From a virus, in IMG/VR virus record IMGVR_UViG_3300000547_000002, positions 1-64,000 of that record: a stretch of 64,000 nt of DNA, one strand, 5' to 3'. Positions within the stretch are counted from its first letter, which is position 1. Every line of letters begins with the position of its first letter. The position numbers and the translations under genes are program-made. Positions 5,572 to 32,406 of this stretch are shown here, one piece after another. The notes below the pieces were generated by a model. The model saw nothing but the letters and a program-made list of their open reading frames with translations. It did no database searches and was not told the origin of the DNA.

Positions 5572-6690
5572 ATGTCGCTTAGAATAAGAAGAGGTTTAAG
5601 CACCGATATACCTACCCCTGTTGAAGGCGAGTTATTATATACCACCGACGAAGGTAAATTATATGTAGGATACAACGATCCTATAGAGGGAGAAGTAATA
5701 CCTAAATTAACGGGTGCTAGACTAACAGACGATGATACTCCTACACTATCGGCAGATCTAAATCTAGCAGGAAATAACATAGTTGGAACCGGTAATATTA
5801 ATATAGACGGTACTATAAATGCTACTGGTAATATTAATTTAGGCGACGAAGATAGCGACACAATTAATATAAACGGGCAAATCAATACATCATTAATTCC
5901 TACATCGACAAATTTGTATGACTTAGGTGATATTACAGCAAGATGGAGAAATGGATATTTTCAATCTCTTATAGCAAATAGTTACATAGAATCTTCCGAC
6001 TTTGTTGTAGGTAATTCTATTGTATCTAGTGATAGCACCGTTATCTATGATAATTTATCTAACAGTATCAACATAGAATCAATCACTGCAAATATCGTAG
6101 AAGGCAATTTGATAGGAAATGTCTATAATGAAAATTCTAGTTTAATTATAGATAACGAAGAGGGTTCATTTAATACTCCGTCTCTAAAGATTATCGATGA
6201 AAAAATCGAAAGTAAAATTTCTGAGCCGTTAAGAGTTTTTTCCGATAAAGGTTTAAGGAATTTTGGTTCTTCCTCTCAGTCTATAACAGACTCAAACGCA
6301 TTTGTGCTTAATTCAATAGGCGATAGTGATACTAGTCCTTTAGCAATTGGAGATATAGTAGGAGCATTTGCTTACAGCGGCTATGACGGCTCCGATTATA
6401 TACCAACAAATGTAATACTCTCTGAAGTTGATTCCGATGCAAGCGGTTCTATACTACCTGGAAAGTTAGTCGTTTATTCTGCAGATGTTACAGGCAGTTT
6501 GAATCCTACAATGACCATAGATTCTGCGGGAACAATAAGTGGAGGCATTTTCAAAACCGGCACCTATAACAACACAACAGAAAGAGATAATCAAATACCT
6601 AATCCAGAAGCAGGAATGATTATCTTTCTAAACGATGTATCTCCAAAATTTCAAGGGTATGACGGAACACAGTGGGTTGATTTTAATTAG
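5572..6690 (+). CDS. tail fibre-like virion protein
   Basis: N-terminal LRIRRG...P.EGELLYTTDEGKLYVG (Mtd/hyaluronidase N-terminal type), G/N/I-rich beta repeats, C-terminal GMIIF...KFQGYDGTQW motif typical of phage fibres. Confidence 0.7.
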   Translation: MSLRIRRGLSTDIPTPVEGELLYTTDEGKLYVGYNDPIEGEVIPKLTGARLTDDDTPTLSADLNLAGNNIVGTGNINIDGTINATGNINLGDEDSDTININGQINTSLIPTSTNLYDLGDITARWRNGYFQSLIANSYIESSDFVVGNSIVSSDSTVIYDNLSNSINIESITANIVEGNLIGNVYNENSSLIIDNEEGSFNTPSLKIIDEKIESKISEPLRVFSDKGLRNFGSSSQSITDSNAFVLNSIGDSDTSPLAIGDIVGAFAYSGYDGSDYIPTNVILSEVDSDASGSILPGKLVVYSADVTGSLNPTMTIDSAGTISGGIFKTGTYNNTTERDNQIPNPEAGMIIFLNDVSPKFQGYDGTQWVDFN

Positions 6691-7502
6691 TAAGATTGTA
6701 GATTATCAATTCCTAGTGTCTTTCTAAAACTTTCTGTAAAAACACAATCTATACGAACACCATATTCCTGCTCTTTAGAAGATTCTCCGCCGTGCCAGTC
6801 TTGATCGTTCCAGAAGGCAGCATGACAATTTAGATAATACTTATTTTGTTCGTCAGGATCCCATATATAGAATCCTCTTTTGGTTCTAGGCCTAATATGT
6901 ATAAATTCATTTCTATGGTTAGAATAATAGTCATTTTCAAAAACACCATTTTTCGCATCTAAATCTCTATGTTCAAATGCCTTACCATTATGATCGCAAT
7001 GAAAGATAATGACACGACCGATCTGTTCTATAATATCATTTTCTATAAGATTATATACCCACTGAACTAGTCCAGGAAAATATTTGGATTCTTCAGTTGG
7101 CTTTCTTTTAGCATTTCGTTCATTCCAGTCGCCTTCTTCCCATATAAAATAATAAACATATGGATCGTTAGCACCTAATGTAGTTTTTAAATATCTTGTA
7201 AAGATATTTCTTTGTTTATAATCGCCAAAATCCTCAGGTAAAATTTTATCACCTTCAATCTTGATAGGATTATCATCTGGTAAATCTTGGTATTCTTCCC
7301 AAGCCTTATAGATAGGCTTCCAGTCTAAAATGTAACTCGCGTGTTTCCATTCAAATCCAGGTTTCATCCAAGTTCCTTCTTTTGCATAATCTCTAGCAAG
7401 AGCCATGCCTTTAGAAATTTCGGGATGTAAATTTTTAAAACCTTCGATGTCTAAAAAAGGATCTAAGTTTAGATATTTTTGTCCGCCTATTCCTCTTATC
7501 AT
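6687..7502 (-). CDS. putative 2OG-Fe(II)/cupin-fold oxygenase
   Basis: HRD...WHG...R pattern (EHRDLD, DWHGG, GVRID) fits an HxD..H facial triad; AGGAG RBS. Confidence 0.5.
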   Translation of the reverse strand: MIRGIGGQKYLNLDPFLDIEGFKNLHPEISKGMALARDYAKEGTWMKPGFEWKHASYILDWKPIYKAWEEYQDLPDDNPIKIEGDKILPEDFGDYKQRNIFTRYLKTTLGANDPYVYYFIWEEGDWNERNAKRKPTEESKYFPGLVQWVYNLIENDIIEQIGRVIIFHCDHNGKAFEHRDLDAKNGVFENDYYSNHRNEFIHIRPRTKRGFYIWDPDEQNKYYLNCHAAFWNDQDWHGGESSKEQEYGVRIDCVFTESFRKTLGIDNLQSY

Positions 7503-7524
7503 TCAAAACTCCTAATCTTAAAAA

Positions 7525-7540
7525 TATTTATTAGTAAATA
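7525..7540. promoter_or_regulatory. back-to-back TAAATA late promoters (divergent)
   Basis: TATTTA-ttag-TAAATA inverted repeat between divergent genes 7502(-) and 7546(+). Confidence 0.6.
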
Positions 7541-7545
7541 AAATT

Positions 7546-8241
7546 ATGTCTAATGGCTTTGAATATTATTATAATAATGTTCCCGGAAAGGGTCTGTGTA
7601 GAAACAATTTGATATACACAAGTTTGATTAGCAAAGACAGAAAAACATTTTGTCAATGGTATTACAATGACAAAACTTATCACAGTGGGATGAATAAGGT
7701 TGTTGACCCTACCCTTATGTTGGAAAAATGGCAGAGAGAAAAACATTATCTTTTGCTAATGCATGAAAACTTCCCCCAGCACATTCCTGAAATTTTAGAT
7801 ATCGATGATAAAAATCAAAAAATTTATTTAAGAATAGACGGAGATGATTTTTGGGAAAGAGCAAAAACAGACATAAACAGATACAACGACGTTCTTCCTA
7901 ATTGGGAAGAACAGATGCTAGAAATAATAGAAAGTCATAAAAAATTAAATTTCTATAAAATTTCTATGCACCCTTCTAGTTATTTTGTAGTAGACGGAAA
8001 ATTAAAAAGTATTAATTATTTTTTTTGTTATAATTTCAGTGAAGAGACGATAAGATTTTCAGATGTTTTTAGTCACATAAGCGACGACAGATTAGAAAAA
8101 CTTTATCCTCTCATGAAAAAAATGAATATTGATTATAATAACCAAGAACCCTTAGAAAAAATACAGAATTTAGCATTTGAGACATTTAAATTTAATTTTC
8201 CTCATAGCACTATGGAAAAAGCAAAGAGAATCTATGTTTAG
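7546..8241 (+). CDS. atypical protein-kinase/phosphotransferase-fold protein
   Basis: WQREKHYL helix, HIPEILDID, catalytic-loop-like YKISMHPSSYF, then KLKSINYF; paralog of 9913..10584. Confidence 0.45.
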   Translation: MSNGFEYYYNNVPGKGLCRNNLIYTSLISKDRKTFCQWYYNDKTYHSGMNKVVDPTLMLEKWQREKHYLLLMHENFPQHIPEILDIDDKNQKIYLRIDGDDFWERAKTDINRYNDVLPNWEEQMLEIIESHKKLNFYKISMHPSSYFVVDGKLKSINYFFCYNFSEETIRFSDVFSHISDDRLEKLYPLMKKMNIDYNNQEPLEKIQNLAFETFKFNFPHSTMEKAKRIYV

Positions 8242-8800
8242 TATTAAAGAATGGAATCCAGATTTGGATTTATCTTTTTTTTACAAAGAATGCAAAAAAA
8301 GAGGGCACATTAATAACTCCTCAAAAAAACAAATGATAGATTGTTTCAAAAATGAAAAACACTGGAATGTTTGGATTTTGTATCACTATAACACCCCTAT
8401 AGGCAGCGTAGCAGCACACTCATTCGACGATGTTATGGGAGAGAATTCATATAGAATTTTGACTAGAACGTGTGCTTTATCAAAATATGCGCCTATTACA
8501 GGCTTATTAACCAAAAATAAAATGATATTAGAACACCAACACTTTACGGCGCAATTTTTTTTAGAAACTTGCGTTAAATGGTGCAAATCAGACAGATTAT
8601 ATTCTACATCGAACTATAGCGATTGCGCAAGTCAAAAAATTGTGAATAGACTTTATTTTCCTACACTTGCAAAAAAAAATTTAGTAGAATTTGTTAAAAC
8701 ACAGAATTATAGAGGACTACCACAAAACATTTGGAAAATAAATCATGAAGCTTTTTTGGCAGATCTTAATCGTTATCCGCGATGGAAATTAAATAATTAA
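8234..8800 (+). CDS. hypothetical protein, possible GNAT-fold acyltransferase
   Basis: ATG8234 overlaps the upstream stop; strand pattern WILYH..PIGSVAAH..YRILTR is GNAT-like (weak). Confidence 0.4.
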   Translation: MFSIKEWNPDLDLSFFYKECKKRGHINNSSKKQMIDCFKNEKHWNVWILYHYNTPIGSVAAHSFDDVMGENSYRILTRTCALSKYAPITGLLTKNKMILEHQHFTAQFFLETCVKWCKSDRLYSTSNYSDCASQKIVNRLYFPTLAKKNLVEFVKTQNYRGLPQNIWKINHEAFLADLNRYPRWKLNN

Positions 8801-9380
8801 CTTTTTCGCATTTTTTGTCTAAATCTTTGTCTTTACCTCCTAAAGATTCAATAACAAACGAAGTAAGTTTTAAATTAAATTCTACATTCCAAAAATAAGG
8901 ATTAGATAACCAAATATCAATGATTGATACTATGGATTCTAAGGGTATTTCTTCGTCCGAATTATATCTATCGTCTCCTATTGTTGACTTAATAAAAGAA
9001 AAGTCAAGGTATAATATTTTTGCTACATTATATTGGGTAGGAATAGAAGATAGTAAATTGCAAAATTCATAAAGTTCTGATTTGATAAATGATAATTCAG
9101 GTTTTATATTTGTGTAATTCCGTATTACGCCTCCTGATACAATTATAAATGAAACATGTTTATAAATCTTCTCTAAAATTTCTTTCTGATATTCTTTATA
9201 ACATAGATTATTAAAAACAATATCAGCATCTTTGCAAATTGAAACTATCTCATCGAAATTGCGTTCTATATCATAACCACGAGTTCTAGAAATACCAATA
9301 ACTTCAAAATTTTGATTAACGAAATAATCTTTTACTGCCTTCCCTATACCGAAAGTGTCTCCTATAACCACTGCCTTCAT
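8766..9380 (-). CDS. short-chain dehydrogenase/reductase-like protein
   Basis: Start ATG9380, MKAVVIGDTFGIGKA (GxxxGIG Rossmann), GISRTRGYDI, DIVFNN. Confidence 0.65.
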   Translation of the reverse strand: MKAVVIGDTFGIGKAVKDYFVNQNFEVIGISRTRGYDIERNFDEIVSICKDADIVFNNLCYKEYQKEILEKIYKHVSFIIVSGGVIRNYTNIKPELSFIKSELYEFCNLLSSIPTQYNVAKILYLDFSFIKSTIGDDRYNSDEEIPLESIVSIIDIWLSNPYFWNVEFNLKLTSFVIESLGGKDKDLDKKCEKVNYLISIADND

Positions 9381-9925
9381 AGCTTTACACCTAAGCAATG
9401 ATAAAGGAAAAAGGGCTGCAAACCACAATTTGCTGCAGAATGATAATTTCTATAATCTTTCCACTTAACGATTGTTCCTATGTCGCAAGCAGAGACATCT
9501 TTACCTTCTAACGCTAAAAAATGAGATAAATTTTTTTCGCCTAGAAAAATAGAATATCTCATTAATTTACCTTCTTGGAGCCATTGTTCATGCTTATCGT
9601 CAACGTCCCAATGCCAAGGTGCTGTTTTACCTGGCATAATTAAACTCACCCAGTCTCTTTTCGGATTTATATTTACATATTCGGCAAATTGATTTGTAAA
9701 TTGAGCATTATAATGTTCATTTGGGTAATAGTTATACCACTCTATGCTGGATAAAAAATATCCTGCGTTTATCCAATTATCGATCATTTCTTGATAGTAA
9801 TTTTTAATTTTGGTATTTTTAGATTTTGAAGCATCTAGTATAGAATTGAAATCTAAACGCTTAGGCTGAGTTTTTTGACATTCACCAACAAGATCTTTGC
9901 ATTTTTTTCTAATTATTTTATACAT
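9377..9925 (-). CDS. putative 2OG-Fe(II) oxygenase
   Basis: PG..APWHWD and YHSAANCG motifs; start ATG9925. Confidence 0.6.
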   Translation of the reverse strand: MYKIIRKKCKDLVGECQKTQPKRLDFNSILDASKSKNTKIKNYYQEMIDNWINAGYFLSSIEWYNYYPNEHYNAQFTNQFAEYVNINPKRDWVSLIMPGKTAPWHWDVDDKHEQWLQEGKLMRYSIFLGEKNLSHFLALEGKDVSACDIGTIVKWKDYRNYHSAANCGLQPFFLYHCLGVKL

Positions 9926-10584
9926 GATTCCAAATCGTCCAATTTCAAATTTAGTTTTTGGTTGTGCCATTTATCATTTAACAATAAAAATTTATAGATT
10001 TCAAAAAAGTTATAATTGTTGCGTTCACTAAAAGGTTCTGTACAAATCCATTTTTTACTATCTTGCGAAAGTATCTCATCTACTATTGTTTTGTTGACCA
10101 ATGGCGTATTAAGACCAAAACAACTAAAAAAGTCTATAGTTTTTATTACATTATTTCTGTTTTCAAAAAAACAATGTGAATGCATAGAAATTTTTCCTAA
10201 GCCAATTCGATATAAATCAGACAAGACATTTTGTGCTTTGTTCATGAAGTAAACCTGCTTTTCTGGTTGATGATATATAACATGATTGATTAAATCTCCA
10301 TCGTAGCGAATGAAAATCTTTTTTGATTTTTTATCGATTTCTAAAATATCTGGACACCACTGATAGTTTCTCAATTTGTCTAAGTAATACAATTCATTTT
10401 CAAAAAAATAATCAAGAGTTTTTTGACTTAAATTATTTTTTGAATAGGCATTCTTTTTACAAAAGTGATAACAAAATATTTTGTTATCCGGACTTATTAA
10501 TGGCTCGTAAGTGTGTTGCGATACGCAACTCCTTCCTTGATTATCCAGTTTGTATAGATATTTCCAATTTTTAACAGATATCAA
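9913..10584 (-). CDS. atypical kinase/phosphotransferase-fold protein
   Basis: FENELYYL, WCPDILEID, GKISMHSHCFF, IKTIDFF (DFG-like); paralog of 7546..8241. Confidence 0.5.
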   Translation of the reverse strand: MISVKNWKYLYKLDNQGRSCVSQHTYEPLISPDNKIFCYHFCKKNAYSKNNLSQKTLDYFFENELYYLDKLRNYQWCPDILEIDKKSKKIFIRYDGDLINHVIYHQPEKQVYFMNKAQNVLSDLYRIGLGKISMHSHCFFENRNNVIKTIDFFSCFGLNTPLVNKTIVDEILSQDSKKWICTEPFSERNNYNFFEIYKFLLLNDKWHNQKLNLKLDDLESCIK

Positions 10585-11233
10585 TTTTAAATTCTCTAGG
10601 TGTAATATACTCTAAATCAATCAAATTATTTTCTTCGAGTTCAAAACTACAACCTTTTTCTTCGATCTTGAAATTAGTTAATAGCCCTTTTTTGTTAGCA
10701 TAATTTAACCAAGAACTAAGGGTATTATCAAATTTATATCTAGGATTAGAACCAGCTAAACGTATTTTAACGGTTTTTGATTTGTTAAGTTGATTATTTT
10801 GTAAAAGTTTTCTTACGACTAGTTGATATCTAGAAGTTTCACCGCAAGAAATAGCTGTATGAACTTTACTCGTATCCATTTCATACCAGATAGCATCTGC
10901 ATAAGTAGGATATATTACATTATCATCTAGGTCTAATAAGTACCCTCCGTCGCCTGCAAGATTAATATGAAATCTATCATCTATGTCTGCATGTTGTGTG
11001 TAACAACGCATTGATTCAAGAATTATCAGTCGTGCTTCGCCTATCGGAAAATCTAATGTCGAAAGTATGTTACCTAACGGAGTATCTTTGACTTCTTCTT
11101 TTAAAGACCACTCGTCGTAAAAAAAATTTCCAGTAGGGAAATTGAGCACATTTTTCATTTGGTCGAAATGGTAAATTTGTGACTGAGAATCCTCTAGGAG
11201 TTTTTTATCTATAGAATGCAACGGTGCTAGCAT
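10571..11233 (-). CDS. aspartyl/asparaginyl beta-hydroxylase-like 2OG-Fe(II) oxygenase
   Basis: YTQHADIDDRFHINL and MDTSKVHTAISCGETSRYQLVV (HxD..H..R). Confidence 0.65.
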   Translation of the reverse strand: MLAPLHSIDKKLLEDSQSQIYHFDQMKNVLNFPTGNFFYDEWSLKEEVKDTPLGNILSTLDFPIGEARLIILESMRCYTQHADIDDRFHINLAGDGGYLLDLDDNVIYPTYADAIWYEMDTSKVHTAISCGETSRYQLVVRKLLQNNQLNKSKTVKIRLAGSNPRYKFDNTLSSWLNYANKKGLLTNFKIEEKGCSFELEENNLIDLEYITPREFKIDIC

Positions 11234-11237
11234 CAGA

Positions 11238-11281
11238 TATTTACCAAGATCTATAACTTACATATAATTTATTGGTAAGTA
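11238..11281. promoter_or_regulatory. divergent late promoters (TAAATA on -, TAAGTA on +)
   Basis: TATTTA 11238-11243 lies 4 nt from ATG11233(-); TAAGTA 11276-11281 lies 5 nt from ATG11287(+). Confidence 0.5.
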
Positions 11282-11286
11282 ATTTT

Positions 11287-12024
11287 ATGCAACCTTATAA
11301 CCTACTTGAAGTAGATGGTGTAAAAATACCTTTTTCACATAATTGGACTAACATAGGAATAAGTTTAAGTGGCGGAGCAGATAGTGCATTACTGCTATAT
11401 ATCCTAAGTAATTATTTTACATGCAACATACACGTTATCACCCAAATAAGATGTTGGAAAACAAGACCCTGGCAAGAATACCATAGTTTACAAGTTTTTG
11501 AGTGGTTTCAAACTAATTTTCCAAAAAAAAATTTTACAAGGCATGAAGGTTTCATTCCGCCCGACTTAGAATGGGGGAGAATCGGACCTACAATAACGGA
11601 TGAGTACGGAAAACTAAAAAGCGGAAATCAAATTATATTGCGATCCCATAACGAGTATATCTGTCACAAAGAAAAAATCAACGCATGGTTTGCAGCAGTT
11701 AATCGTAACCCTAATATTAAATTAGACGGAGCCTTAAAAGACAGAGACGATGGACACATACTTCCCATTTTTAATCATATGAACACGGTTATTTGCCATC
11801 CGTTTATTAAAACACGAAAGGATTGGATTATACAACAATATTATAATTTTGATATTTTAGATCTGTTAGATCTAACAAGAAGTTGCGAAGGAGATAAAAT
11901 CGACTATCCTGAAATTTTTGGTGATTTAGACTTTACTACTTATATTCCAGGACAATATGTGCCTGAGTGCGGAAAATGTTTCTGGTGCAATGAACGTGAA
12001 TGGGCATTGAATCGTGTTAAATAA
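11287..12024 (+). CDS. QueC-like PP-loop ATPase (7-cyano-7-deazaguanine synthase-like)
   Basis: PP-loop SLSGGADSA; C-terminal Zn motif TRSC...CGKCFWC.ER. Confidence 0.7.
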   Translation: MQPYNLLEVDGVKIPFSHNWTNIGISLSGGADSALLLYILSNYFTCNIHVITQIRCWKTRPWQEYHSLQVFEWFQTNFPKKNFTRHEGFIPPDLEWGRIGPTITDEYGKLKSGNQIILRSHNEYICHKEKINAWFAAVNRNPNIKLDGALKDRDDGHILPIFNHMNTVICHPFIKTRKDWIIQQYYNFDILDLLDLTRSCEGDKIDYPEIFGDLDFTTYIPGQYVPECGKCFWCNEREWALNRVK

Positions 12025-13285
12025 TAAATCTTGCACATTTTGTATGCATCCCTTTACTGGTCTAGCAACTAGAGAAGATGGTGCTATTAAAATCTGTTGC
12101 AGAAGTCAACCAGTAGGATGGATACAAGAACAAAGTCTTGAAGAAGTCTGGAACTCCGACAAAATGAAGGAAGTTCGCAAGCAAGTTCTCAATGGTAAAC
12201 GTCCTGATGTTTGTATGCCCTGCTTTAATCTTGAAGATCAGGGTGTAGAGAGCTTACGACAGCGTCATATACGCGGTTTAATACCAGAAGCCAGGGTTAA
12301 CCTTTATCCTGATGCTTTAGACGCGCTAGAAGACGATTATTCCATGCCTTTTGAATTTCCAACTATGGAGATTAAGATTAACAATCTGTGTAATCTTAAA
12401 TGTCGCATGTGTAACCCTTTGGATTCTACTTCATGGACGGATTGGAAAGAAGTAGAAGAATTTTACGAAAGAGAAAACAACTACCTTGTTCCTACCGTTA
12501 GAAAACTTACAAAAAGACCAGGACAATATATCGGACCATTTGACAATTCCGATAATTGGTGGCAAGATTTTGAAAAACTTCTACCTCACTTTCGCAGAGT
12601 AGAGTTTGCAGGAGGGGAGCCCCTAATGGATCCTAACCACTACAAAATTCTAGACATGCTTAAACCACACGCAGATAAAATTGAAATCAAATATGCCACT
12701 AACGGAACAAAACTCGGCATATCAGATGGCAGGACTATATTTGACTATTGGCCTTACTTTAAGTCTGTTGCTGTAAATATAAGCATTGACGGTATACATG
12801 ATGTCTATGAATACATAAGAGGTAATGGCGATTTTTCACTAATAGAAGAAAATATAAAACAAATTAAAACTTTACCTAACATCTCAAGAATTGTAGGTGC
12901 TTTTACGGTCCAATCTAACAACATCATGCAAATTGATAAAGTAATAGAATACTTTTTAGAAGATATGGGTATAATCTTTTATAGTCATAGAGTAAACTAT
13001 CCTAGAGCTTTGTCTGCACAGGTTCTTCCTCAGAAACTAAAGGCAGATATCATAGGCAAATTAGAAAAAATGAACAACAAGATAGAAAAGTTTACTTTGA
13101 TTAAATCTAATCCTACAATTAAAAAAGTGACTTTACAGCAAATAAAAGACAATATAAACTTTTTACAAGCCGAAGATCTTAGCCAATACTGGAAAGAATG
13201 CCTAGAATTTAATCGAAAATTAGATTTCAGTCGAAAGCAAGGTCCTATAGAAAAAATTATTCCTGAATTTAAACCATATGTATAA
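12014..13285 (+). CDS. radical SAM protein with N-terminal SPASM/Twitch domain
   Basis: CNLKCRMC, FAGGEP, YATNGT, SIDG; N-terminal CMHPF..ICC..VWNS..C..C. Confidence 0.9.
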   Translation: MLNNKSCTFCMHPFTGLATREDGAIKICCRSQPVGWIQEQSLEEVWNSDKMKEVRKQVLNGKRPDVCMPCFNLEDQGVESLRQRHIRGLIPEARVNLYPDALDALEDDYSMPFEFPTMEIKINNLCNLKCRMCNPLDSTSWTDWKEVEEFYERENNYLVPTVRKLTKRPGQYIGPFDNSDNWWQDFEKLLPHFRRVEFAGGEPLMDPNHYKILDMLKPHADKIEIKYATNGTKLGISDGRTIFDYWPYFKSVAVNISIDGIHDVYEYIRGNGDFSLIEENIKQIKTLPNISRIVGAFTVQSNNIMQIDKVIEYFLEDMGIIFYSHRVNYPRALSAQVLPQKLKADIIGKLEKMNNKIEKFTLIKSNPTIKKVTLQQIKDNINFLQAEDLSQYWKECLEFNRKLDFSRKQGPIEKIIPEFKPYV

Positions 13286-19857: not shown

Positions 19858-19886
19858 ATGTTATATAAATCATAGTAATTTGTCAA
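19858..19886 (-). promoter_or_regulatory. possible sigma70-type promoter TTGACA-N17-TAACAT
   Basis: -35 at 19886-19881 and -10 at 19863-19858; ATG19851 lies ~7 nt downstream with no RBS (leaderless?). Confidence 0.35.
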
Positions 19887-23862: not shown

Positions 23863-24356
23863 CTATAAAAACCGGAAAGCTAGAAAATATATACTGGAAC
23901 GACAGTTTTAAAAGTTTCGATTACATAAAGCAACCTGTAAGTGAAGAAGAAATCACAAAGTGGAGAGAAGCAGGATATAATCATAAAAGCTTCACCGGAG
24001 AAATGTATGATAGTAAAAACCCAATGCCGGACTACGCTGATAAAATTGCTAAGGACTTGGGATTAAAAAATTGCGGTTTTGTTTTTTACAGAATGAATAC
24101 TAATGACATAATGCCTACGCATGTAGATCACTTTTCTCGTTACTGTGAAATTTTTAACGTTGACAGATATGATGTATTTAGAGCGGTAGTTTTTTTAGAA
24201 GATTGGAAAATAGGACATTATTTTGACATAGGAAATAGGGCAATAATGAATTATACCGCAGGTGAATGGATCATGTGGAGCTGTGACGAACCTCACTTTG
24301 CAGCTAACATAGGAACAGAGCCTAGATATACTCTGCAAATTACAGGAATTTTGTAA
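23859..24356 (+). CDS. putative 2OG-Fe(II) oxygenase
   Basis: MPTHVD and PHFAANIGTEPRYTLQITG (HxD..H..R). Confidence 0.65.
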   Translation: MTIKTGKLENIYWNDSFKSFDYIKQPVSEEEITKWREAGYNHKSFTGEMYDSKNPMPDYADKIAKDLGLKNCGFVFYRMNTNDIMPTHVDHFSRYCEIFNVDRYDVFRAVVFLEDWKIGHYFDIGNRAIMNYTAGEWIMWSCDEPHFAANIGTEPRYTLQITGIL

Positions 24357-25537: not shown

Positions 25538-26681
25538 AAATCCATACATCGACTCGTGCGAAAGTTCTACATTTTCAGTATTATTTGATTACTTTAATTG
25601 GCGCGACGATATACAATTAATACATGGGCTAATGAAATATCCTGAATGGAAGCCTAATGTAAATATCCTTAATTTTATAAAAAATCTAGAAGAGCTAAGA
25701 TACAATGCCAATTGTTATTTTGTTTTTGATGCTTCTACAGAAGGATTTTCACCTTTCAAAAACTTCTTCTTTCATAACCTATACGAATCATGTAGATTAC
25801 ATAATATTAAGCCTAACAAGATTATATTTGTTTCAACAAATATGAAAGATTTAACCAATATTGAAAGATATAATAAAGAAAATAGAATACAAGAAAGTAT
25901 AAGAGTTTTTCCTTTCTTAAGTTTCAAAAAAATGATTCAAGATTTGATAGAGGACAATTACGGCTTTAATTTTAACAGCAATTCTGCATTTGAATATTTC
26001 AAATCTGAATGTGACAGAAAATTTAGCGGAGATTTTGGATTAAGTTTAAGCAGAGTAAATCGATCACATAGAACTCTTGCTCATTATCTTCTACACTCTA
26101 CCAACCTAGACAGACATTTTAAATTAAGTCAAGATAGAATTTCTGAAGATGACATAAGATACACTGCACAACATTATTTGCTTGATAAAAATTTTTTAAA
26201 ATGGTGTTCTACTCTACCAAAGGTTGTCGACACAGAAGATTTTGAAACTAATCATGCTTTATCTATTAATAGTCATCTTCACAATTCAACTCTATTTCAG
26301 ATTGTAAATGAAACTCACGTAAAAAACTGGCAAAATACGAGTTTATTTTATTCAGAAAAAACATTTAGATCCATGGCTCACATGCAACCGTTCCTGATAT
26401 TTGGACAGCCAGGCTGTAATAGAAAATTAGAACAATTAGGTTTTAGACTTTTTAGAGAAGATTTTGATTACTCCTTTGATGATATTCAAGACACAAAAAA
26501 ACGTTACCTTGCAATAATAGATACTATTAGACAGGTAGTTAAACAACTGAACGAGATGAATAGAGACGAACAAATAAAATGGAGATTTAGGAGAGAAGAA
26601 ACACTCAAACACAATTTTGATTTAGTAATGGACATTAACTATTTTAGACAGGATTTTGAAAAACTGATAGAGGCATTATGA
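25527..26681 (+). CDS. putative GT-B-like glycosyltransferase (paralog of 24356..25537)
   Basis: IVNET...FYSEKTFR....QPFLIFG....LEQLGFRLF...FDYSFD. Confidence 0.5.
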   Translation: MIIKNPYIDSCESSTFSVLFDYFNWRDDIQLIHGLMKYPEWKPNVNILNFIKNLEELRYNANCYFVFDASTEGFSPFKNFFFHNLYESCRLHNIKPNKIIFVSTNMKDLTNIERYNKENRIQESIRVFPFLSFKKMIQDLIEDNYGFNFNSNSAFEYFKSECDRKFSGDFGLSLSRVNRSHRTLAHYLLHSTNLDRHFKLSQDRISEDDIRYTAQHYLLDKNFLKWCSTLPKVVDTEDFETNHALSINSHLHNSTLFQIVNETHVKNWQNTSLFYSEKTFRSMAHMQPFLIFGQPGCNRKLEQLGFRLFREDFDYSFDDIQDTKKRYLAIIDTIRQVVKQLNEMNRDEQIKWRFRREETLKHNFDLVMDINYFRQDFEKLIEAL

Positions 26682-27523
26682 AAAGATACAAAAGATTTTT
26701 TGCTTTCGGATGTTCTTTTACTCATTATAAATGGGCGACATGGGCGAATATTCTAGCATACGAATTAGATTGCGAATTTTTTAATTTGGGGAAAAGCGGT
26801 GCAGGGAACAGTTTTATCGCTAATCAAATTTCTCAAGCGGATGCATATTTCAATTTTACACAAGAAGATTTAGTTGTAGTAAGTTGGACTAATATCTCAC
26901 GCGAGGATAGATATAGAGACACAGGATGGATCACGCCAGGTAATATTTACTCGCAACATGATTATGATGAAAACTTTGTCTCTAATTACGCAAACGATAC
27001 CCATTTTGCATTGCGAGATTTTTCTTACATTCATTTTGTAAAAAACCTGTTAGAAAGTAAAACCAACTGGCATTTTTTACAAATGTGTAACATAGTTAAT
27101 GTAATTAATCAATGGGAATCAAACAGAAGATCGAACTCTGACATCAAAAATATTTCAGACTTATATACTGATTCTTTACAACACATTGTTCCGAGTTTTT
27201 ATGATGTTTTATGGAGAGGAAACATTGATAATAAATGGAAAAGTGATTGGAGAGAAATACACCCGAACTATTCTGACGGACATCCTACACCATTAGAGCA
27301 TTTGCAATATCTAGAAAGAACAATCATGCCCAACATATCAGAAAAAACAAAACAAGCTGTATATTCTTTACAAGAACAATGGCGAGATTATATTCGAGAA
27401 GGATATAAAAACACTTCTATAGATTGCGGGCTACACGACATGCCAAACAATTGGGTAGATAAAATGCATAATTTATTTAGACTGAGGGAAGAAAAGCCTA
27501 TTCCCAGTGTGCTGTATCATTGA
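26678..27523 (+). CDS. SGNH/GDSL-like protein
   Basis: AFGCSFT, NLGKSGAGN, DGHPT. Confidence 0.6.
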   Translation: MKRYKRFFAFGCSFTHYKWATWANILAYELDCEFFNLGKSGAGNSFIANQISQADAYFNFTQEDLVVVSWTNISREDRYRDTGWITPGNIYSQHDYDENFVSNYANDTHFALRDFSYIHFVKNLLESKTNWHFLQMCNIVNVINQWESNRRSNSDIKNISDLYTDSLQHIVPSFYDVLWRGNIDNKWKSDWREIHPNYSDGHPTPLEHLQYLERTIMPNISEKTKQAVYSLQEQWRDYIREGYKNTSIDCGLHDMPNNWVDKMHNLFRLREEKPIPSVLYH

Positions 27524-28893
27524 CTCTGGCACAAGTCCCAAAAACTTTGCATTTCTGGAAATGTGTCAGTAAAATTTGAATTTCTTCTTCTATCGTGCTC
27601 GGAAAACCAAGCATAAAAGTTTTTTCTTGCTACTATTAACTTATCTTCTTCATAAAAAGTAGATGCCATGTAATCAACTACTCTTTTGAACTTTTCATAC
27701 TCTAGATCTGTGAATTTAGTTCTATCACTATTGTCTTGATTGCGTTTTATAAAATCTAAATGAGAATACATATAGAGCATGTATTCTTCTTTCGGTAGAA
27801 TATTCATGTCAAATATAGTAGGTTCTTTCAAATGAGGTGTATCAAAACGAATTCTTTGCCATTGTGTTTCGTTTTTGTTCGAATTGTATCTTTCGCGCCA
27901 TTCTAGTATCTTTTCTAGCAATAAATTAAAACTTGTAACGCAAAATATATTGAACGTAATCATAAATGTTACAGGCAATCCTGTATTTGAGAGATAATAG
28001 TCTAGATTACGCTCCCATAATTTGATATCTAGACCGTGACGAGCGTATTCTGCTCTTTCCCCCCAGGTATCAATTGAAGTATATAATTTAAAACTTTTAA
28101 TTGCGTTTATAGAACGCAGATAACTGATCCTTTCTACTAGACGTTCTACGAGTTTGGGTTTGACCCCAAGATTTGAGTTAATTTCTATCTGTATATGCGG
28201 TTTCGGATCTTCCTCCAGTTTATCAAACAAATCCCATGTACTTTTATGCATCAAAGGCTCGCCGCCTGTTATTCGCAGTATGTTAAGAGTCTTTGAAACT
28301 TCGGGCCACCATTCCCACCATGCTTTTACATATGGATTTTCTTCTTCTCTGTGATAGACTTTGAACCAATCTATGTCCTGTCTATGATCTGTAGCAGTAT
28401 CATAAGGTCCATGTTCGTCAATTTCTTTCCAATACCTAGAACTTGCTTTAGGATGACAATAGCCACACTTGAAGTTACACTCATTTGAGAAAGAAATTTC
28501 AATATACTCCGGATTTACGTTGTATTCTGCACCGCCTTGTTTTATTTCTTCCAATCTTTCTGGTGTATATATTGAAGCAGTTTTGATATGACGATCGGAA
28601 ACATAGTCTTTGCCCATTGCTTCTATTTTCCAGCAGTAGGAACATCCTGCAGGCTGCTGTCCTTTCATCATAAATTCTCGTTCCTGCTTTTTTTGACGAG
28701 TATTATGAAGTGCAGATGGGTTGTTTTCAAGTTCTTCCAACGGAATAGGATGCGGAGCAGGATGATAGCAAGAGTGAGTTTCGCCTGTTTGTAGATAAAT
28801 CGTGGTATGATGCCACTTTGCCATACAGAAAGTAGGAGAAATTTCTCTATCTGTATGAGGAATAATCTGTTTTATCTCTTCAAGTTCGCTCAT
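27517..28893 (-). CDS. radical SAM protein with N-terminal SPASM/Twitch domain
   Basis: CNFKCGYC, ITGGEP, INSNL; N-terminal CMAKW..HSCYH..CSYC. Confidence 0.9.
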   Translation of the reverse strand: MSELEEIKQIIPHTDREISPTFCMAKWHHTTIYLQTGETHSCYHPAPHPIPLEELENNPSALHNTRQKKQEREFMMKGQQPAGCSYCWKIEAMGKDYVSDRHIKTASIYTPERLEEIKQGGAEYNVNPEYIEISFSNECNFKCGYCHPKASSRYWKEIDEHGPYDTATDHRQDIDWFKVYHREEENPYVKAWWEWWPEVSKTLNILRITGGEPLMHKSTWDLFDKLEEDPKPHIQIEINSNLGVKPKLVERLVERISYLRSINAIKSFKLYTSIDTWGERAEYARHGLDIKLWERNLDYYLSNTGLPVTFMITFNIFCVTSFNLLLEKILEWRERYNSNKNETQWQRIRFDTPHLKEPTIFDMNILPKEEYMLYMYSHLDFIKRNQDNSDRTKFTDLEYEKFKRVVDYMASTFYEEDKLIVARKNFYAWFSEHDRRRNSNFTDTFPEMQSFWDLCQSQ

Positions 28894-29792
28894 TTCTGCC
28901 TTTTAATAATTCTTGGCGTGTTTCTATAGGTTGATTTGAAGAATCTACTTCCTGCTTCGTCTAATAGTGCAATCTCAATACCTAATTTGCTTGTAAGACC
29001 GTGTTCTAATTCGTTAACTTCTTCTATTACAGCATTTTCGTCTTTGGTTTTGTGATTGTCGTTCCAATATTCTGTAAGATACTCAAAATCTCTAACTTGT
29101 TTATATTCCCAGTCTGTGCAGTTTGTAAGATAACAGCCTTCTCTTGCTCCGTATATGCTCCATAAACCATTTTCTACGTCTGCTCCTACAGAACACCATA
29201 TTTTAAGACGTTCTAGATTTTGCCACCATACTGTTTTAATGTCATTGACAGGGGATCCTTGGTCAAGACTCATTTTTACACCTTCTCTAAATCCTGCTCT
29301 CCAGGCTTGAAAAGGAGATCCGTTCGTGTATGATGTGGAATAGTTGTCATTAAATTGATAATACTTGTCATCGAAACAGAATTCTACGAGAGATCGTTCG
29401 TCTGCGTCATTTGCTGCTTCGTGAGTTTTCATATTTTGAACAAAATCTTTGTTCCATAGTTTTAAACCGCCATTTCCATACATTAACCCATTTACATAGA
29501 CTCGTCCGCACCAAGAAAAAACGTGATCGCGTGTTAATCCAAGCTCGTCAATGTCAATAACTACGTTTAGAAATGATTGATCTACAATATTGTCCGCATC
29601 TACGGTTACAAAATAGTCTGTGTCCGAAATATCAGCACAGGCTTTGTGAGCAGCGTCAGATCCCTTTACACCGTGAACTCTTTTTGCCCACGGAATTTTT
29701 TGACATAGGTCAGCATAATTCTTTTCTGCGTTAGGTTCGTCAAAAGAAAGAAATATCACATCCTGTTCTGCTACAACTATTTTGTTTGACAC
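28890..29792 (-). CDS. GT2-like glycosyltransferase
   Basis: DVIFLSFDEPNA, TVDADN, YGNGGLKLW, AWRAGFREG. Confidence 0.7.
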   Translation of the reverse strand: MSNKIVVAEQDVIFLSFDEPNAEKNYADLCQKIPWAKRVHGVKGSDAAHKACADISDTDYFVTVDADNIVDQSFLNVVIDIDELGLTRDHVFSWCGRVYVNGLMYGNGGLKLWNKDFVQNMKTHEAANDADERSLVEFCFDDKYYQFNDNYSTSYTNGSPFQAWRAGFREGVKMSLDQGSPVNDIKTVWWQNLERLKIWCSVGADVENGLWSIYGAREGCYLTNCTDWEYKQVRDFEYLTEYWNDNHKTKDENAVIEEVNELEHGLTSKLGIEIALLDEAGSRFFKSTYRNTPRIIKRQK

Positions 29793-30364
29793 TGGGTTAT
29801 CCTTTGAAAGCTATATTTTTCGAACATTTTTGCTGTAAAAACGGAAATGTCCTGTATTTCTTCTTCAAATTTCATATCGAAAGGTACTACAGCATAGTTA
29901 TCTCTTACTACTCGTGAAAAATCAACAGAAAGAGTTTTGTAAAGCACATTAGGATCGTGTTTTGCTGTGACGGAAAATGTAATTTCTCTGTTTAGTCGAA
30001 CTCCCTGCTGTTTTAGGTTTTGATTAAGAGACTTTCCTAATAGAATCTTCCAACAGGAATTTGGTATGTCCTGTAAAACCGTTATGTCAGCGTTGTCGTC
30101 GTTGTTTTCTGGTAATTCGTATATAAAGTCATTTACAGAAGCACCATCAAACTGCATTTCATGAACATTTACAAGTGCCAGCTGTTTCTTTTTAGGATCA
30201 TACTCTACTCTGTAGTTTCTTCGTCTTTCTTTTCCTTGTAGAATGCCTACAACTTCTTCTAAATCAACAGCTATATCGTGATGATTCGCACTTGGTTTAG
30301 GAGATATTCCTATGATTTTGCCTGTGTCTTCTTCAAATCTCACATACATTATGTCTGAAGACAT
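29777..30364 (-). CDS. hypothetical protein in the GT operon
   Basis: 195-aa ORF overlapping both neighbours. Confidence 0.75.
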   Translation of the reverse strand: MSSDIMYVRFEEDTGKIIGISPKPSANHHDIAVDLEEVVGILQGKERRRNYRVEYDPKKKQLALVNVHEMQFDGASVNDFIYELPENNDDNADITVLQDIPNSCWKILLGKSLNQNLKQQGVRLNREITFSVTAKHDPNVLYKTLSVDFSRVVRDNYAVVPFDMKFEEEIQDISVFTAKMFEKYSFQRITQCQTK

Positions 30365-31179
30365 TTTTCAAACTTCCTTATCTTGTCTTCTGTTACAAAA
30401 TCGTTTTCTGTATAATGAAATACACCGTTTTGATGAAAATTTCCAATTTTTAGCGTTGCTTGTTCTGTAAGATACACACCTACTTTATCCTGCCAGCGGG
30501 AAGTTGGCATTTTCCAGTTCTGTATTTGTGATTTCATATGAATAACGGAAACAATGTCGCTTGTTTGGTTGGATATTTCTGTGTCGCAATCCGTAATTTT
30601 AGCAGCAATTGCTGTAGTGATGTCCATTGACGGTTCTTTAGGGTAGAAATTCGAACAGAAATGCCCGTAAAACAATTCCCAGTTGTTAGATATTAATTCT
30701 ACCCATTCAAAAAACTGTTTTGCTTTGTTGGATTTTTTAAAATAGTGCAAGCAGTTGTAGAAGTTTGGTAAATCATTAGCAGTAAATGCTTTTCTGTAAT
30801 AATCAGACTCTACAAGTTCTTGTCTATACGTAAAAACTCTTGTAGGAAAATATACTTCGTAATTTTTTAATAGATTCCAAGCATAATTTAAATTTTGTAA
30901 CACAAGAACATCAGAATCTATAACGATAGTTTCATCATAGGGCGTTGCGTGATAGATTTTCCATCTATTTTGAGTTTTTAATCTGGTTTCGTCCGATTTA
31001 TACCACGGAATTTCTACGATCTTATCAAAAACGTGTGTGTATTGCTGGGGGATAGTGTTATTTGTTATTATACTAACGGGTAAATCGTTGCCAGATGCCT
31101 TCAAACTTAAAGCAGCAAGGTAAGATTGCTGTATATATTCTTCTCCGTCGGCAAAAACGCAGTATCCTTTGCTATTCAT
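30349..31179 (-). CDS. GT-A fold (GT8-like) glycosyltransferase
   Basis: TPYDETIVIDSD (DxD), YFKKS, IHMK, FHY; ATGA-coupled start 31179. Confidence 0.65.
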   Translation of the reverse strand: MNSKGYCVFADGEEYIQQSYLAALSLKASGNDLPVSIITNNTIPQQYTHVFDKIVEIPWYKSDETRLKTQNRWKIYHATPYDETIVIDSDVLVLQNLNYAWNLLKNYEVYFPTRVFTYRQELVESDYYRKAFTANDLPNFYNCLHYFKKSNKAKQFFEWVELISNNWELFYGHFCSNFYPKEPSMDITTAIAAKITDCDTEISNQTSDIVSVIHMKSQIQNWKMPTSRWQDKVGVYLTEQATLKIGNFHQNGVFHYTENDFVTEDKIRKFEKCLQT

Positions 31180-32060
31180 ACAATACACCTATTTAAACTA
31201 AACTTGTTCATACAGTGTAAATTAGAATTTTTTAGAGATAATAGTGTGTATTCGCCTGTATATTTGGGCTTTTCAAGCAAAATTGTTAATTTTTCTCTGT
31301 CAATATCCCATAAAATGCTTTTATCTGTGATGTAATAGAGTTTTCCAGGCATTGATTTTGCAAAATCTCCTTGTTCATAGCCGTTCATAATGTGAATTGC
31401 TATAGAAAATGCATAATCATTGCGAAAATACGGGGTGTTAATCTGAAAAATTGAGCAATAATGATTCCAATTTTCCTGTATGTGCGCTACTAAATCAAAA
31501 AATATGCGGTTTTGCTCCGTTTTTCTAAAGAAAACAGCGGTTGCCCAGTAAAAATCTACGGAAGTTTCCGAAACTCTTTCAAAAACATCGCCTCTATCCA
31601 AGTCTAAAAGATCTACACAGTCTTTATAAACAAGAAAATCGTGCGATTGCTCAAAACATTTCTTCCAAAATCCATTAGAAATTACAACATCACTGTCTAA
31701 TAGCAGTGTTTCGTCATAAGGAGATGCTCGAAAAGCAGTTGATCGTAGGTTGTTTTTCCAATCCAACTTTTTTTCTACTAGAGTTCCGTCGTAAAATTTC
31801 TTAACAGCGTGATTTTCTGACGGAGAATATACTGTGTTTTCTTTTAGATCTTTTTCTTTCCATACAACAGAAATTACTTGATCAAAAACAGATTCGTAAT
31901 CAGGATATTCGTGTTCGAGATAAGATAGGCTATCTGTAACTATTGACGTAGGAAGATCAAGATATTTGCGCACTCTCTTAGCAAGAAAATAGGCCTGTTT
32001 GATGTAATCAATCTGAGAATTATTTCTAGCATAAACAAGTATGCCTTGAGTTTTATTCAT
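31176..32060 (-). CDS. GT-A fold (GT8-like) glycosyltransferase
   Basis: SPYDETLLLDSD, WATAVFFRK, RNDYAFS, LHCMNK; tandem paralog of the adjacent GT (30349..31179). Confidence 0.65.
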   Translation of the reverse strand: MNKTQGILVYARNNSQIDYIKQAYFLAKRVRKYLDLPTSIVTDSLSYLEHEYPDYESVFDQVISVVWKEKDLKENTVYSPSENHAVKKFYDGTLVEKKLDWKNNLRSTAFRASPYDETLLLDSDVVISNGFWKKCFEQSHDFLVYKDCVDLLDLDRGDVFERVSETSVDFYWATAVFFRKTEQNRIFFDLVAHIQENWNHYCSIFQINTPYFRNDYAFSIAIHIMNGYEQGDFAKSMPGKLYYITDKSILWDIDREKLTILLEKPKYTGEYTLLSLKNSNLHCMNKFSLNRCIV

Positions 32061-32406
32061 AATCAACTAATTTTGACACTGAACGTTTTTTTAGTAGCTC
32101 TTTGTATTCTGCATGATAGGTATTAGCAGCAGAAAAATATCTATCTGTTATATCAGAAAGAAACTCATCAAGATCAGATACCATTACGGGTGTTTCGTTG
32201 TCGTCAATTAACACAATGTCTTCGTCATTGCCTTTTTCTACAAGCATATTAACGAAAGTTAGTAACTGCTTATTGACCGTAAATTGCCCGCCGTTAAAAT
32301 AATGAACAATGTTTTCTTTAAATTGCTCTCTTAACATTCTTTTTTGATTGTTCAGAGTGACCATGTAATTAGAAAATTCAAGTGCTTTTTCCAATCTTTC
32401 GTCCAT
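32053..32406 (-). CDS. hypothetical protein leading the GT operon
   Basis: ATG32406 (MDERLEKALEFS) with AGGAG RBS. Confidence 0.8.
   Translation of the reverse strand: MDERLEKALEFSNYMVTLNNQKRMLREQFKENIVHYFNGGQFTVNKQLLTFVNMLVEKGNDEDIVLIDDNETPVMVSDLDEFLSDITDRYFSAANTYHAEYKELLKKRSVSKLVDYE

Follow-up and report, generated by a model that had tools for sequence, protein, structure and literature searches.

In pelagimyophages and cyanomyophages, a host recognition cluster (HRC) has been described for which a change of the O-chain was proposed, from genomics only and with broad enzyme labels (PMC7029224). The subject of this report is an island of packed enzyme genes at positions 6687-32457 of the window, the 64,000-nucleotide stretch that forms the first 64 kb of the 79,180-bp linear IMG/VR virus record IMGVR_UViG_3300000547_000002. 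The island holds 30 open reading frames (ORFs) of 134-469 amino acids (aa) and one 76-aa fragment, mostly with overlapping stops and starts; it thus bears out the initial annotation of the window, which had marked about 31 mostly enzyme-like ORFs between fibre genes, and most of the enzyme calls made there hold as well. Like the HRC, the island lies beside a giant structural gene (VrlC there, a 5182-aa protein here) and tail fibre genes and contains GT8 glycosyltransferases, UDP-glucose 6-dehydrogenase and radical S-adenosylmethionine (SAM) enzyme cassettes, and both are known from genomics only. However, the island belongs to another lineage (nearest isolates PA5oct, Phosso, Atu_ph07 and SCTP-2; genomes of ~360 kb), and whereas the HRC is hypervariable, here a core and a fibre-linked block are constant and the inserted cassettes alone vary.

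The fibre-linked block has a counterpart in a cultured phage. Among 50,697 phage genomes, one record only contains a homologue of the GT-A protein 28890 (genes of the window are named by their start positions; Table 1), namely that of the Ralstonia jumbo phage RsoM2USA (MG752970); its relative XacN1, provided that it is among these records, thus has none. There, ORF355 to ORF347 encode in order a fibre, a 32053-like protein, two GT8 transferases, an unknown protein, a GT-A transferase, an N-terminal-twitch (N-twitch) radical SAM protein, a further GT-A transferase and a methyltransferase-like protein. The two blocks are collinear, with identities of 33-48% (28890/ORF350, 48%; 27517/ORF349, 36%; 30349/ORF352, 36%; 32053/ORF354, 34%; 31176/ORF353, 33%), and each lies downstream of a giant virion protein and a baseplate wedge gene (ORF361 and ORF362 in RsoM2USA). 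The RsoM2USA block genes are annotated as hypothetical; ORF361 was detected in virions by mass spectrometry (PMC8504454). Unlike the lineage of the window, RsoM2USA is a soil phage of a betaproteobacterium and lacks, at that place, the large radical SAM core, the UDP-glucose dehydrogenase (Ugd) and the amidinotransferase cassette.

Other relatives cover other parts of the island. The T4-like cyanophage S-SCSM2R (PQ898602; 244 kb) encodes, in what were labelled "antibiotic synthesis genes" (PMC12801897), a DegT-like protein (50% identity), an amidinotransferase (60.5%) and a 2-oxoglutarate (2OG) oxygenase (27%) among glycosyltransferases and a radical SAM gene, but in the stretch seen this cassette is not beside fibres, and the single radical SAM protein is not of the N-twitch kind. 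TARA_ERS488813_N000010, a T4-like marine genome with 12 radical SAM genes, was reported as Fe-S related with no cluster anatomy (Nishimura et al. 2017, PMC5332604). Its likeness to the present case lies in the many radical SAM genes of one marine myovirus genome. In chlorovirus PBCV-1, through A64R, and in mycobacteriophages, through capsid and tail glycosylation, GT-A transferases encoded by the virus act in the cytoplasm on structural proteins; such systems comprise a few transferases and lack tailoring by radical SAM enzymes or oxygenases, and the system described here is known from genes alone. Mycobacteriophage capsid and tail glycosylation is mentioned in PMC11256854. The initial statement that no phage pathway of this complexity had been characterised stands as far as characterisation goes, but comparable clusters had been noted genomically (PMC7029224, PMC5332604, PMC12801897). 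New here are a radical SAM core that recurs in at least 284 viral contigs, a constant fibre-linked block that also occurs in cultured phage RsoM2USA, the lack of membrane-bound proteins in the island and the correction of a false bacterial synteny.

Judged by its protein relatives, the source is an uncultured jumbo myovirus of ~360 kb related to PA5oct, Atu_ph07 and SCTP-2. The baseplate wedge protein is 34-38% identical to its counterparts in SCTP-2, Phosso, Atu_ph07 and PA5oct, the nearest isolates and all jumbo myoviruses, and an ATPase is 50% identical to that of PA5oct. CheckV rates the 79,180-bp record as 21% complete and related contigs of 94-160 kb as 26-44% complete, hence the genome size given. 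Megablast of the island and the structural region against the 50,697 phage records returned no match. The alternatives raised initially, an assembly chimera or a host lipopolysaccharide (LPS) locus, were ruled out, as the same neighbourhood occurs in independent contigs from other samples. Two large contigs place the cluster 24-29 kb from the wedge gene, as in the window. In these two, two N-twitch radical SAM proteins are 71-79% identical to those of the window and the wedge protein 54-55%, which indicates that the core is under no less constraint than a baseplate protein. The G+C content is 29-38% in the island and 35-46% in its surroundings.

Seven island proteins (12014, 13278, 14146, 15141, 17129, 18117 and 27517) score above the Pfam Radical_SAM model (PF04055; 35.5-43.8 bits against a cut-off of 29.5) and carry the CxxxCxxC motif, which confirms the number first proposed. 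Their sequences place them in three groups: one of three proteins that have a twitch domain at the N-terminus, one of three whose C-terminal tail is rich in Cys, and a single SPASM-like protein. The first group matches NCBIfam NF033640 (N_Twi_rSAM, twitch domain-containing radical SAM protein; curated cut-off 170 bits) over its full length, and the remaining four proteins fall below this cut-off. In the trio, a Cys-rich twitch/SPASM-like domain lies N-terminal to the CxxxCxxC core: Pfam SPASM is found at residues 10-70 and 30-108, ahead of Radical_SAM, and for 27517 via the family alignment only. The N-terminal cysteines C105 and C108 are invariant in the N-twitch alignment, and 12014 shows a median identity of 71% in relatives. 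The auxiliary domain of these three proteins is thus placed unlike the C-terminal twitch of the BtrN/NeoN type, to which the enzymes had first been likened. That likeness was not supported: neither BtrN nor NeoN is among the NCBIfam matches listed, and BtrN is absent from the PDB profile matches at E <= 0.01. The BtrN structure is presumably in the PDB, and NeoN may have no solved structure. The nearest solved structures in the PDB profile search are GDGT-MAS, MoaA and BlsE, at E values of 1e-5 to 1e-9. Weak NCBIfam matches are mostly to peptide-maturase families, all far below the cut-off of any maturase family; 13278 has at best a weak match to STM4011, and 18117 matches BlsE (E 2.7e-9) and a W-cofactor maturase (E 5.8e-11) weakly. 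No reaction for NF033640 was found in the searches made. Compared with NF033640 at large, the proteins described here stand out by their occurrence in phages, beside GT-A and QueC-like partners.

The radical SAM genes are part of a widespread core. Relatives of 15141 number 4435 in the databases, of which the best 120 all come from metagenomes; they occur in at least 284 IMG/VR contigs, with the best 80 at 74-88% identity. In 80 fetched loci, the core genes 6687, 7546, 9377, 10571, 11272, 12014, 13278, 14146, 15141, 16543, 17129, 18117 and 19177 recur in an order that is shuffled but recognisable and interrupted by inserted genes, often accompanied by 28890, 27517 and Ugd. Each of sixteen full-length 21-kb loci contains 6-10 radical SAM genes. 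Within or beside the cluster, relatives (loci L003-L082) insert alternative oxidase (AOX), a fatty-acid desaturase, TauD-type dioxygenases and ThyX, an oxygen-dependent tool kit beside oxygen-sensitive radical SAM enzymes.

The fibre-linked block keeps a fixed arrangement. This is evident in 22 IMG/VR loci retrieved by means of the GT-A protein 28890. Wherever a locus covers the whole stretch (~20 relatives), the genes 32053, 31176, 30349, 29777 and 28890 follow one another in this order on a single strand; an N-twitch radical SAM gene directly follows the 28890 homologue in 20 of 21 loci, and a homologue of fibre gene 32461 or 34680 lies directly upstream in 15 of the 18 informative loci. In the window, 3 bp separate fibre gene 32461 from 32053. 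Neither 32053 nor 29777 has a family match. The sequence that follows the block varies, being either the cassette 22093-27523 or further N-twitch paralogues. This cassette, which is inverted relative to the block, is present whole in three loci; in a fourth, where the locus ends, only the DegT-like gene is missing.

Transcription signals would fit a joint reading of the block and its fibre gene. A (A)TAAATA motif lies 22-33 nt ahead of 11 of 61 gene starts, where ~0.25 are expected. In the form (A/T)ATAAATA(C/T), it occurs about 40 times more often than by chance, mostly at virion genes (for example 34659, 37204, 62866 and record position 68238), and it resembles the T4 late promoter TATAAATA. 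At -22 to -33 it heads two of the seven island transcription units, 6687 (ATAAATA at -28) and 20639 (TTAAATAC at -33), and it also stands at -27 (TATAAATAT) before fibre gene 32461, whose unit would include the fibre-linked block. At about -10, it heads two further island units, 7546 and 10571. The initial claim that most units sit behind the virion-type motif was thus overstated, with two of seven units and the fibre-led unit having it at the late-type distance. A host-type promoter considered at 32457-32430 was rejected, since the 31 sigma-70-like sites found are at chance level (27.7 +/- 5.3 in shuffles). The seven terminator-like sites in the block region are not clearly above chance (3.8 +/- 1.8 in shuffles).

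The island likely encodes six glycosyltransferases, two GT8-like, two GT-A and two GT-B-like, in agreement with the number first annotated; the GT-A and GT8-like pairs are supported by fold or profile matches, and the GT-B-like pair comes from a low-confidence model only. For 19177, the AlphaFold model (predicted local distance difference test score, pLDDT, 91.5) gave 21 Foldseek matches at E <= 1e-3 with a TM score of ~0.4. Those listed are GT-A transferases, except for the nucleotidyltransferase HddC, and include WrtF, ppGalNAcT, SunS/ThuS, TarP and PBCV-1 A64R at E values of 1e-4 to 1e-3. The DxD residues D57 and D59 are invariant in the 19177 family. For 19177 and 28890, the PDB profile search found no relative at the sequence level and no sequence family could be assigned. 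The model of the GT-B-like pair has a low pLDDT of 56; its better half reaches Z 9.8 to FUT9 and 9.2 to T4 beta-glucosyltransferase (VIA). Pfam Glyphos_transf matches two homologues of 24356, and the PDB profile search with 24356 and 25527 gave nothing usable.

The island also appears to be free of membrane proteins. In Kyte-Doolittle windows of 19 residues with a threshold of 1.6, none of the 30 island proteins has a membrane-helix-like stretch, and the single window above 1.6 lies inside radical SAM protein 27517. No candidate for Gtr, Oac, Wzx, Wzy or a polyprenyl-phosphate transferase was found among the island proteins. In this respect, the island differs from the seroconversion systems GtrABC and Oac, as it has no integral membrane flippase, transferase or acyltransferase.

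Several enzymes point to sugar nucleotides as substrates. In Ugd, which supports the UDP-glucose dehydrogenase call at family level, the N-terminal (65.1 bits) and central (65.3 bits) Pfam domains are above cut-off and the C-terminal domain is below it (18.1 bits against 30). The DegT aminotransferase call has a match above cut-off (46.4 bits against 19.8; residues 98-170, profile positions 164-235 of 360), though in a protein of no more than 195 aa, against ~360 aa for a complete enzyme of fold type I. Because its S-SCSM2R homologue ORF305 has the same 195-aa length, the short form is probably functional. The amidinotransferase 22894 confirms the StrB1-like call by a full-length match (phmmer; StrB1, PDB 1bwd, E 5e-56 over residues 5-319; HsvA, 2e-34; AGAT, 7e-32) and by the catalytic-Cys motif, with GGGFHCVTLD aligned to GGGFHCATLD; its S-SCSM2R homologue is ORF309. 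StrB1 is the L-arginine:inosamine-phosphate amidinotransferase of streptomycin synthesis. The rest of the streptidine pathway is absent here, and the amidinotransferase cassette is variable, being found in 4 of 22 relatives and in the cyanophage. The aminoglycoside analogy first drawn is not supported: it comes from one variable cassette (22093-24356) also present in a cyanophage. The broader nucleotide-sugar logic remains plausible, given Ugd, the DegT-like protein, the amidinotransferase, six likely glycosyltransferases and the nucleotide-sugar 4,6-dehydratases, epimerases and further Ugd genes that a Pfam scan found inside the cluster in relatives. ORF 22677, placed between the genes for the DegT-like protein and the amidinotransferase, contains a canonical SGNH block I (FGDSW) and block II (GVSGAS) followed by a stop and looks like what is left of a truncated esterase.

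Table 1. Features of the enzyme island and its flanks, with window coordinates and the basis of each assignment
Feature	Coordinates	Strand	Basis or remark
Putative fibre-like protein, 372 aa, left flank	5572..6690	+	Look of N-terminal sequence only
AspH-like Fe/2OG oxygenase candidate	6687..7502	-	Atlas match, conserved residues
Small kinase-fold-like protein	7546..8241	+	Paralogue of 9913, E 5e-8
Protein first called GNAT-like	8177..8800	+	Homologues in 9-10 related loci
Short-chain dehydrogenase/reductase (SDR)-like protein	8766..9428	-	Gly-rich N-terminal motif
Cupin or oxygenase-like protein with HxD..H	9377..9970	-	Conserved motif
Kinase-fold-like paralogue of 7546	9913..10584	-	Paralogy
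Fe/2OG beta-hydroxylase, Cpz10-like	10571..11233	-	PDB profile match
Divergent QueC-like PP-loop ATPase	11272..12024	+	Motifs SGGADS, CGKCFWCNER
N-terminal-twitch radical SAM (NF033640)	12014..13285	+	327.7 bits; SPASM 10-70, Radical_SAM 121-287
Radical SAM, Cys-rich C-terminal tail	13278..14162	+	Pfam Radical_SAM; paralogy with 14146, 17129
Radical SAM, Cys-tail family	14146..15144	-	Pfam, paralogy
N-terminal-twitch radical SAM (NF033640), best conserved island gene	15141..16550	-	384.6 bits
Methyltransferase-like protein	16543..17139	-	Weak spermidine-synthase match
Radical SAM, Cys-tail family	17129..18139	-	Pfam, paralogy
Radical SAM, C-terminal SPASM/twitch-like Cys cluster	18117..19184	-	Pfam Radical_SAM
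GT-A fold glycosyltransferase with DxD, paralogue of 28890	19177..19851	-	Predicted structure
SGNH-like candidate	19870..20646	-	Weak similarity to 26678, E 0.004
UDP-glucose/GDP-mannose dehydrogenase family (Ugd)	20639..21862	-	Pfam
Short DegT/AHBA-synthase-like pyridoxal-phosphate protein, 195 aa	22093..22680	+	Pfam DegT
SGNH hydrolase remnant, 76 aa	22677..22907	+	Translation starts MKIITFGDSW, contains GVSGAS
StrB1-type amidinotransferase	22894..23862	+	phmmer, motif
2OG-Fe(II) oxygenase-like protein	23859..24356	+	27% identical to annotated S-SCSM2R ORF308
GT-B-like (GT10-like) transferase candidate	24356..25537	+	Paralogy with 25527; structure model
GT-B-like paralogue candidate	25527..26681	+	Paralogy with 24356
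SGNH/GDSL-like protein of virus-only family	26678..27523	+	Atlas structure match
N-terminal-twitch radical SAM (NF033640), last gene of fibre-linked block	27517..28893	-	316.0 bits
GT-A fold glycosyltransferase of fibre-linked block	28890..29792	-	Paralogue of 19177, E 9e-29
Conserved block protein without family match	29777..30364	-	22-70% homologues, same position in relatives
GT8-like glycosyltransferase	30349..31188	-	Pfam Mannosyl_trans3, 23.6 bits against cut-off 22
GT8-like paralogue	31176..32066	-	Paralogy to 30349, E 2.5e-11
Small conserved protein, possible fibre helper	32053..32457	-	Directly behind fibre; 40-82% homologues, same position
Distal tail fibre heading co-directional block	32461..34632	-	PHROG tail fibre families

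The oxygenase, kinase and further tailoring calls vary in strength. Pfam scans of mixed homologue sets yielded counts only, and a matching member is named only where the ORF length identified the gene; in PHROGs, nine of ten island proteins had no family. Four HxD..H oxygenases had been annotated. The profile of 10571 matches PDB 7v4f (E 2e-16), with H81, D83 and H125 invariant; this structure is Cpz10 of caprazamycin synthesis (PMC9814697). The candidate 6687 looks AspH-like from a viral Asp_Arg_Hydrox cluster of the Atlas (score 0.95) and from H178, D180 and H237, invariant in nine homologues, with no sequence match in the PDB. The other two calls come from a motif in 9377 (H120, D122 and H177 invariant in 13 sequences, no PDB match) and from a homologue's annotation in 23859. 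A scan of the record itself with PF05118, PF04464 and PF02274 gave no match, but this route was judged insensitive because the amidinotransferase nonetheless matches StrB1 at E 5e-56. The two kinase-fold proteins have weak profile matches to Bud32 and Snf1 (E 0.03), and the SDR and methyltransferase calls have weak matches in homologues only (adh_short in two homologues of 8766, best E 3e-4; Methyltransf_25 in one homologue of 16543, which is also 34% identical to RsoM2USA ORF347). Three SGNH-like proteins are weak calls from motifs and one structure match (26678, TM 0.60 to a viral GDSL-like cluster of the Atlas; no database match for 19870). A GNAT-like identity for 8177 is not supported, with no Pfam or PHROG match.

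The QueC-like call for 11272 derives from its motifs and from Pfam QueC matches in five homologues, the best at E 1.7e-4 and far below the Pfam cut-off. This family adjoins an N-twitch radical SAM gene in 43 of 45 related cases. The 79 kb of the record, outside which ~79% of the genome lies, showed no QueD, FolE, DpdA/TGT or hydroxymethylase, and none of these is included in the 25 Pfam families listed for accessory genes of the relatives.

Relatives of the radical SAM proteins also occur in bacteria. When prokaryote genomes were scanned with the N-twitch alignment, 77 loci emerged, many in Bdellovibrionota; only Bdellovibrionota loci on contigs of 0.9-3 Mb were taken as bacterial. One array on a 1.9-Mb chromosome contains one 27517-like, six 15141-like and a 17129-like gene, and 17129 homologues in Bdellovibrionota loci are 46-49% identical. 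In a Bdellovibrionales chromosome (L129, OZ220490.1), seven tandem N-twitch paralogues followed by a Cys-tail radical SAM gene span 2327-13916, with a GT2 gene ~4 kb from the array; in a 936-kb Bdellovibrionia contig, two GT2 genes lie directly ahead of an N-twitch gene. Two loci from metagenome-assembled genomes (MAGs), L104 (labelled Haliscomenobacter) and L100 (Legionellales), seemed to show a bacterial synteny of the transferase and radical SAM block. For L104 this was rejected, as the locus lies on a misbinned phage contig: on this 148-kb RefSeq contig (G007:C3, NZ_JBBAKG010000003.1), the genes of the giant protein and the wedge and those next to them are arranged as in the phage. The MAGs behind L100 and L094 also hold wedge homologues. 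For this reason, only the radical SAM families, not the transferase block, are claimed for true bacteria. Misbinned phage contigs in bacterial MAGs can in this way fake a bacterial synteny.

The flanks of the island differ in their support. Fibre genes had been annotated on both sides; PHROGs bear out the right-hand module, and the left-hand "fibre" 5572 has no PHROG or database match, although a 25% homologue adjoins the cluster in related loci L074 and L076. The region downstream of the island encodes four to five tail fibres and the 5182-aa structural protein, as well as the baseplate wedge protein and a small subunit of the wedge. The 5182-aa protein is a single ORF at 43837-59385 (-) that matches the giant "virion structural protein" family phrog_10938, with homologues at the equivalent position in RsoM2USA (ORF361) and in the misbinned contig G007:C3. 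Four consecutive fibre genes (35686, 37202, 39275 and 41147) at 35686-43201 (-) have a common N-terminal module of ~90 aa (phrog_15511, 14394 and 8309) and differ in their C-terminal parts; this looks like a fibre family whose members can be exchanged on a shared anchor domain, and RsoM2USA ORF355 has the same N-terminus. Outside the island, at 1668-4093 (+), the ATPase with 50% identity to PA5oct (phrog_1297) is followed by a phrog_1314 protein labelled "HNH endonuclease", a pair that looks like a MoxR/CobS-type ATPase and its partner. Beyond the window, the record encodes a VgrG-like protein, a T4 baseplate protein, Mre11/Rad50-like proteins, a further 2OG-Fe(II) oxygenase (70188-70733) and a SegE-type GIY-YIG homing endonuclease at record 72794-73231 (L161:10794-11228), between the Rad50-like and baseplate genes.

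In general terms, the island probably carries out sugar or glycan chemistry tied to host recognition. A more specific reading, offered tentatively from gene content, is that of a phage-owned cytoplasmic pathway that would build and edit a glycan on the phage's own fibres or surface proteins. With no membrane-helix stretches and no flippase, polymerase, polyprenyl-phosphate transferase, Gtr or Oac, the acceptors should be cytoplasmic, and the fibre linkage, the late-type promoter and the enzyme set together make a fibre or surface-protein glycan the best reading. In such a pathway, Ugd, the short DegT-like protein and the StrB1-type amidinotransferase would convert host UDP-sugars to uronic, amino and guanidino sugars, from which six soluble transferases would assemble a short glycan. 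The seven radical SAM proteins, the four Fe/2OG-type oxygenases, the methyltransferase-like protein and the QueC-like ATPase may then edit it. Transcription from the late-type promoter ahead of fibre gene 32461 would run on through the block from 32053 to 27517, and the most likely acceptor would be the distal fibre of the phage itself, or some other surface protein of the virion, modified while still in the cytoplasm, prior to assembly. For the virion target already favoured initially, the support is real but circumstantial: the block stands behind distal fibre genes on the same strand, in RsoM2USA as well, and membrane proteins are lacking. Several points weigh against this reading. The tie to fibre genes is an argument from association, GT8 enzymes classically work at the inner membrane face on the LPS core and need no helices for this, SPASM/twitch enzymes often act on peptides, and to our knowledge no reaction is known for any of the three radical SAM families. 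Moreover, Bdellovibrionota have radical SAM arrays without phage fibres, the calls for the GT-B pair, the kinase-like pair and the SGNH-like proteins are weak, and the record covers ~21% of the genome.

The same enzymes might instead serve the host envelope. GT8-like, Ugd, DegT-like, AspH/LpxO-like and kinase-like enzymes could act during infection, at the cytoplasmic face, to alter the precursors of the LPS core, the O-chain or the capsule, which would block superinfection or stop progeny from sticking to cell debris. The family mix does resemble LPS-core enzymes (GT8, Ugd, ArnB-like DegT), peripheral LPS-core transferases need no membrane helices, and this is the reading proposed by Zaragoza-Solas et al. 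for the GT8-rich pelagimyophage clusters (PMC7029224). Envelope remodelling nevertheless appears unlikely, as the island lacks any candidate membrane component of the Gtr, Oac, Wzx, Wzy or polyprenyl-phosphate transferase kind, the promoter-like sites of host type are at chance level, and the block is tied to fibre genes and a late-type promoter across very different hosts, from those of marine phages to that of a Ralstonia phage. Direct protein chemistry is a further possibility, in which radical SAM enzymes and AspH-like hydroxylases would cross-link, epimerise and hydroxylate virion polypeptides, much as in peptides that ribosomes make and that are modified after translation (RiPPs), and glycosyltransferases would glycosylate the new hydroxyls. 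SPASM/twitch radical SAM enzymes are mostly peptide maturases, as are largely the weak NCBIfam matches, AspH-type enzymes hydroxylate proteins, and the matches of the GT-A model include the peptide or protein glycosyltransferases SunS, ThuS, ppGalNAcT and A64R. However, unlike RiPP maturase systems, the radical SAM operons leave no room for an adjacent precursor gene (overlaps or gaps of at most 38 bp) and no protein reaches a maturase cut-off; sugar-nucleotide enzymes are embedded in the cluster, and the Bdellovibrionota arrays of up to seven paralogues fit polymer tailoring equally well, which leaves this reading quite improbable.

Very improbable is a product that is a small molecule or part of a nucleic acid, that is, a metabolite of the aminoglycoside or nucleoside kind, or phage DNA modified by a 7-deazapurine or a glycosyl group. 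Relatives in antibiotic pathways do exist for the StrB1-type amidinotransferase, for the Cpz10-like hydroxylase and for the weakly BlsE-like radical SAM protein, the QueC-like ATPase is paired with a radical SAM enzyme, and the GT-B model resembles T4 DNA glucosyltransferases, among many other GT-B enzymes. Yet 7-deazaguanine DNA modification uses FolE, QueD, QueE, QueC and DpdA, and the 79 kb contain only a divergent QueC-like ATPase whose likeness is far below the Pfam cut-off; QueD, FolE, DpdA/TGT and hydroxymethylase are also missing from the relatives' listed accessory families. The cassette with the amidinotransferase varies among relatives, genes for an exporter or for self-resistance are lacking, and the fibre linkage would be left unexplained.

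Fibre or surface-protein glycosylation can also be put in a stronger and more doubtful form, in which the block and the radical SAM core would be the first known radical-SAM-dependent virion glycosylation system, used by the marine jumbo lineage and RsoM2USA to coat their distal fibres. If so, N-twitch radical SAM proteins would be a new enzyme class that rewrites protein-attached sugars, and variable cassettes, such as that for a guanidino sugar, would diversify the coat and hence host range or resistance to defence. As it stands, three radical SAM families without a known reaction are among the best conserved genes of widespread uncultured ocean jumbo phages and are also found in predatory Bdellovibrionota, and part of the system is joined to the genes of the tail fibres in marine phages and in a cultured soil phage alike. 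With the RsoM2USA block, the question of the fibres can for the first time be taken to the bench. Should the product be located on fibres, these phages would chemically disguise or tune their organs of host recognition, far beyond simple glycosylation, which would bear on host range, on the arms races between marine phages and their hosts and on the discovery of radical SAM enzymes.

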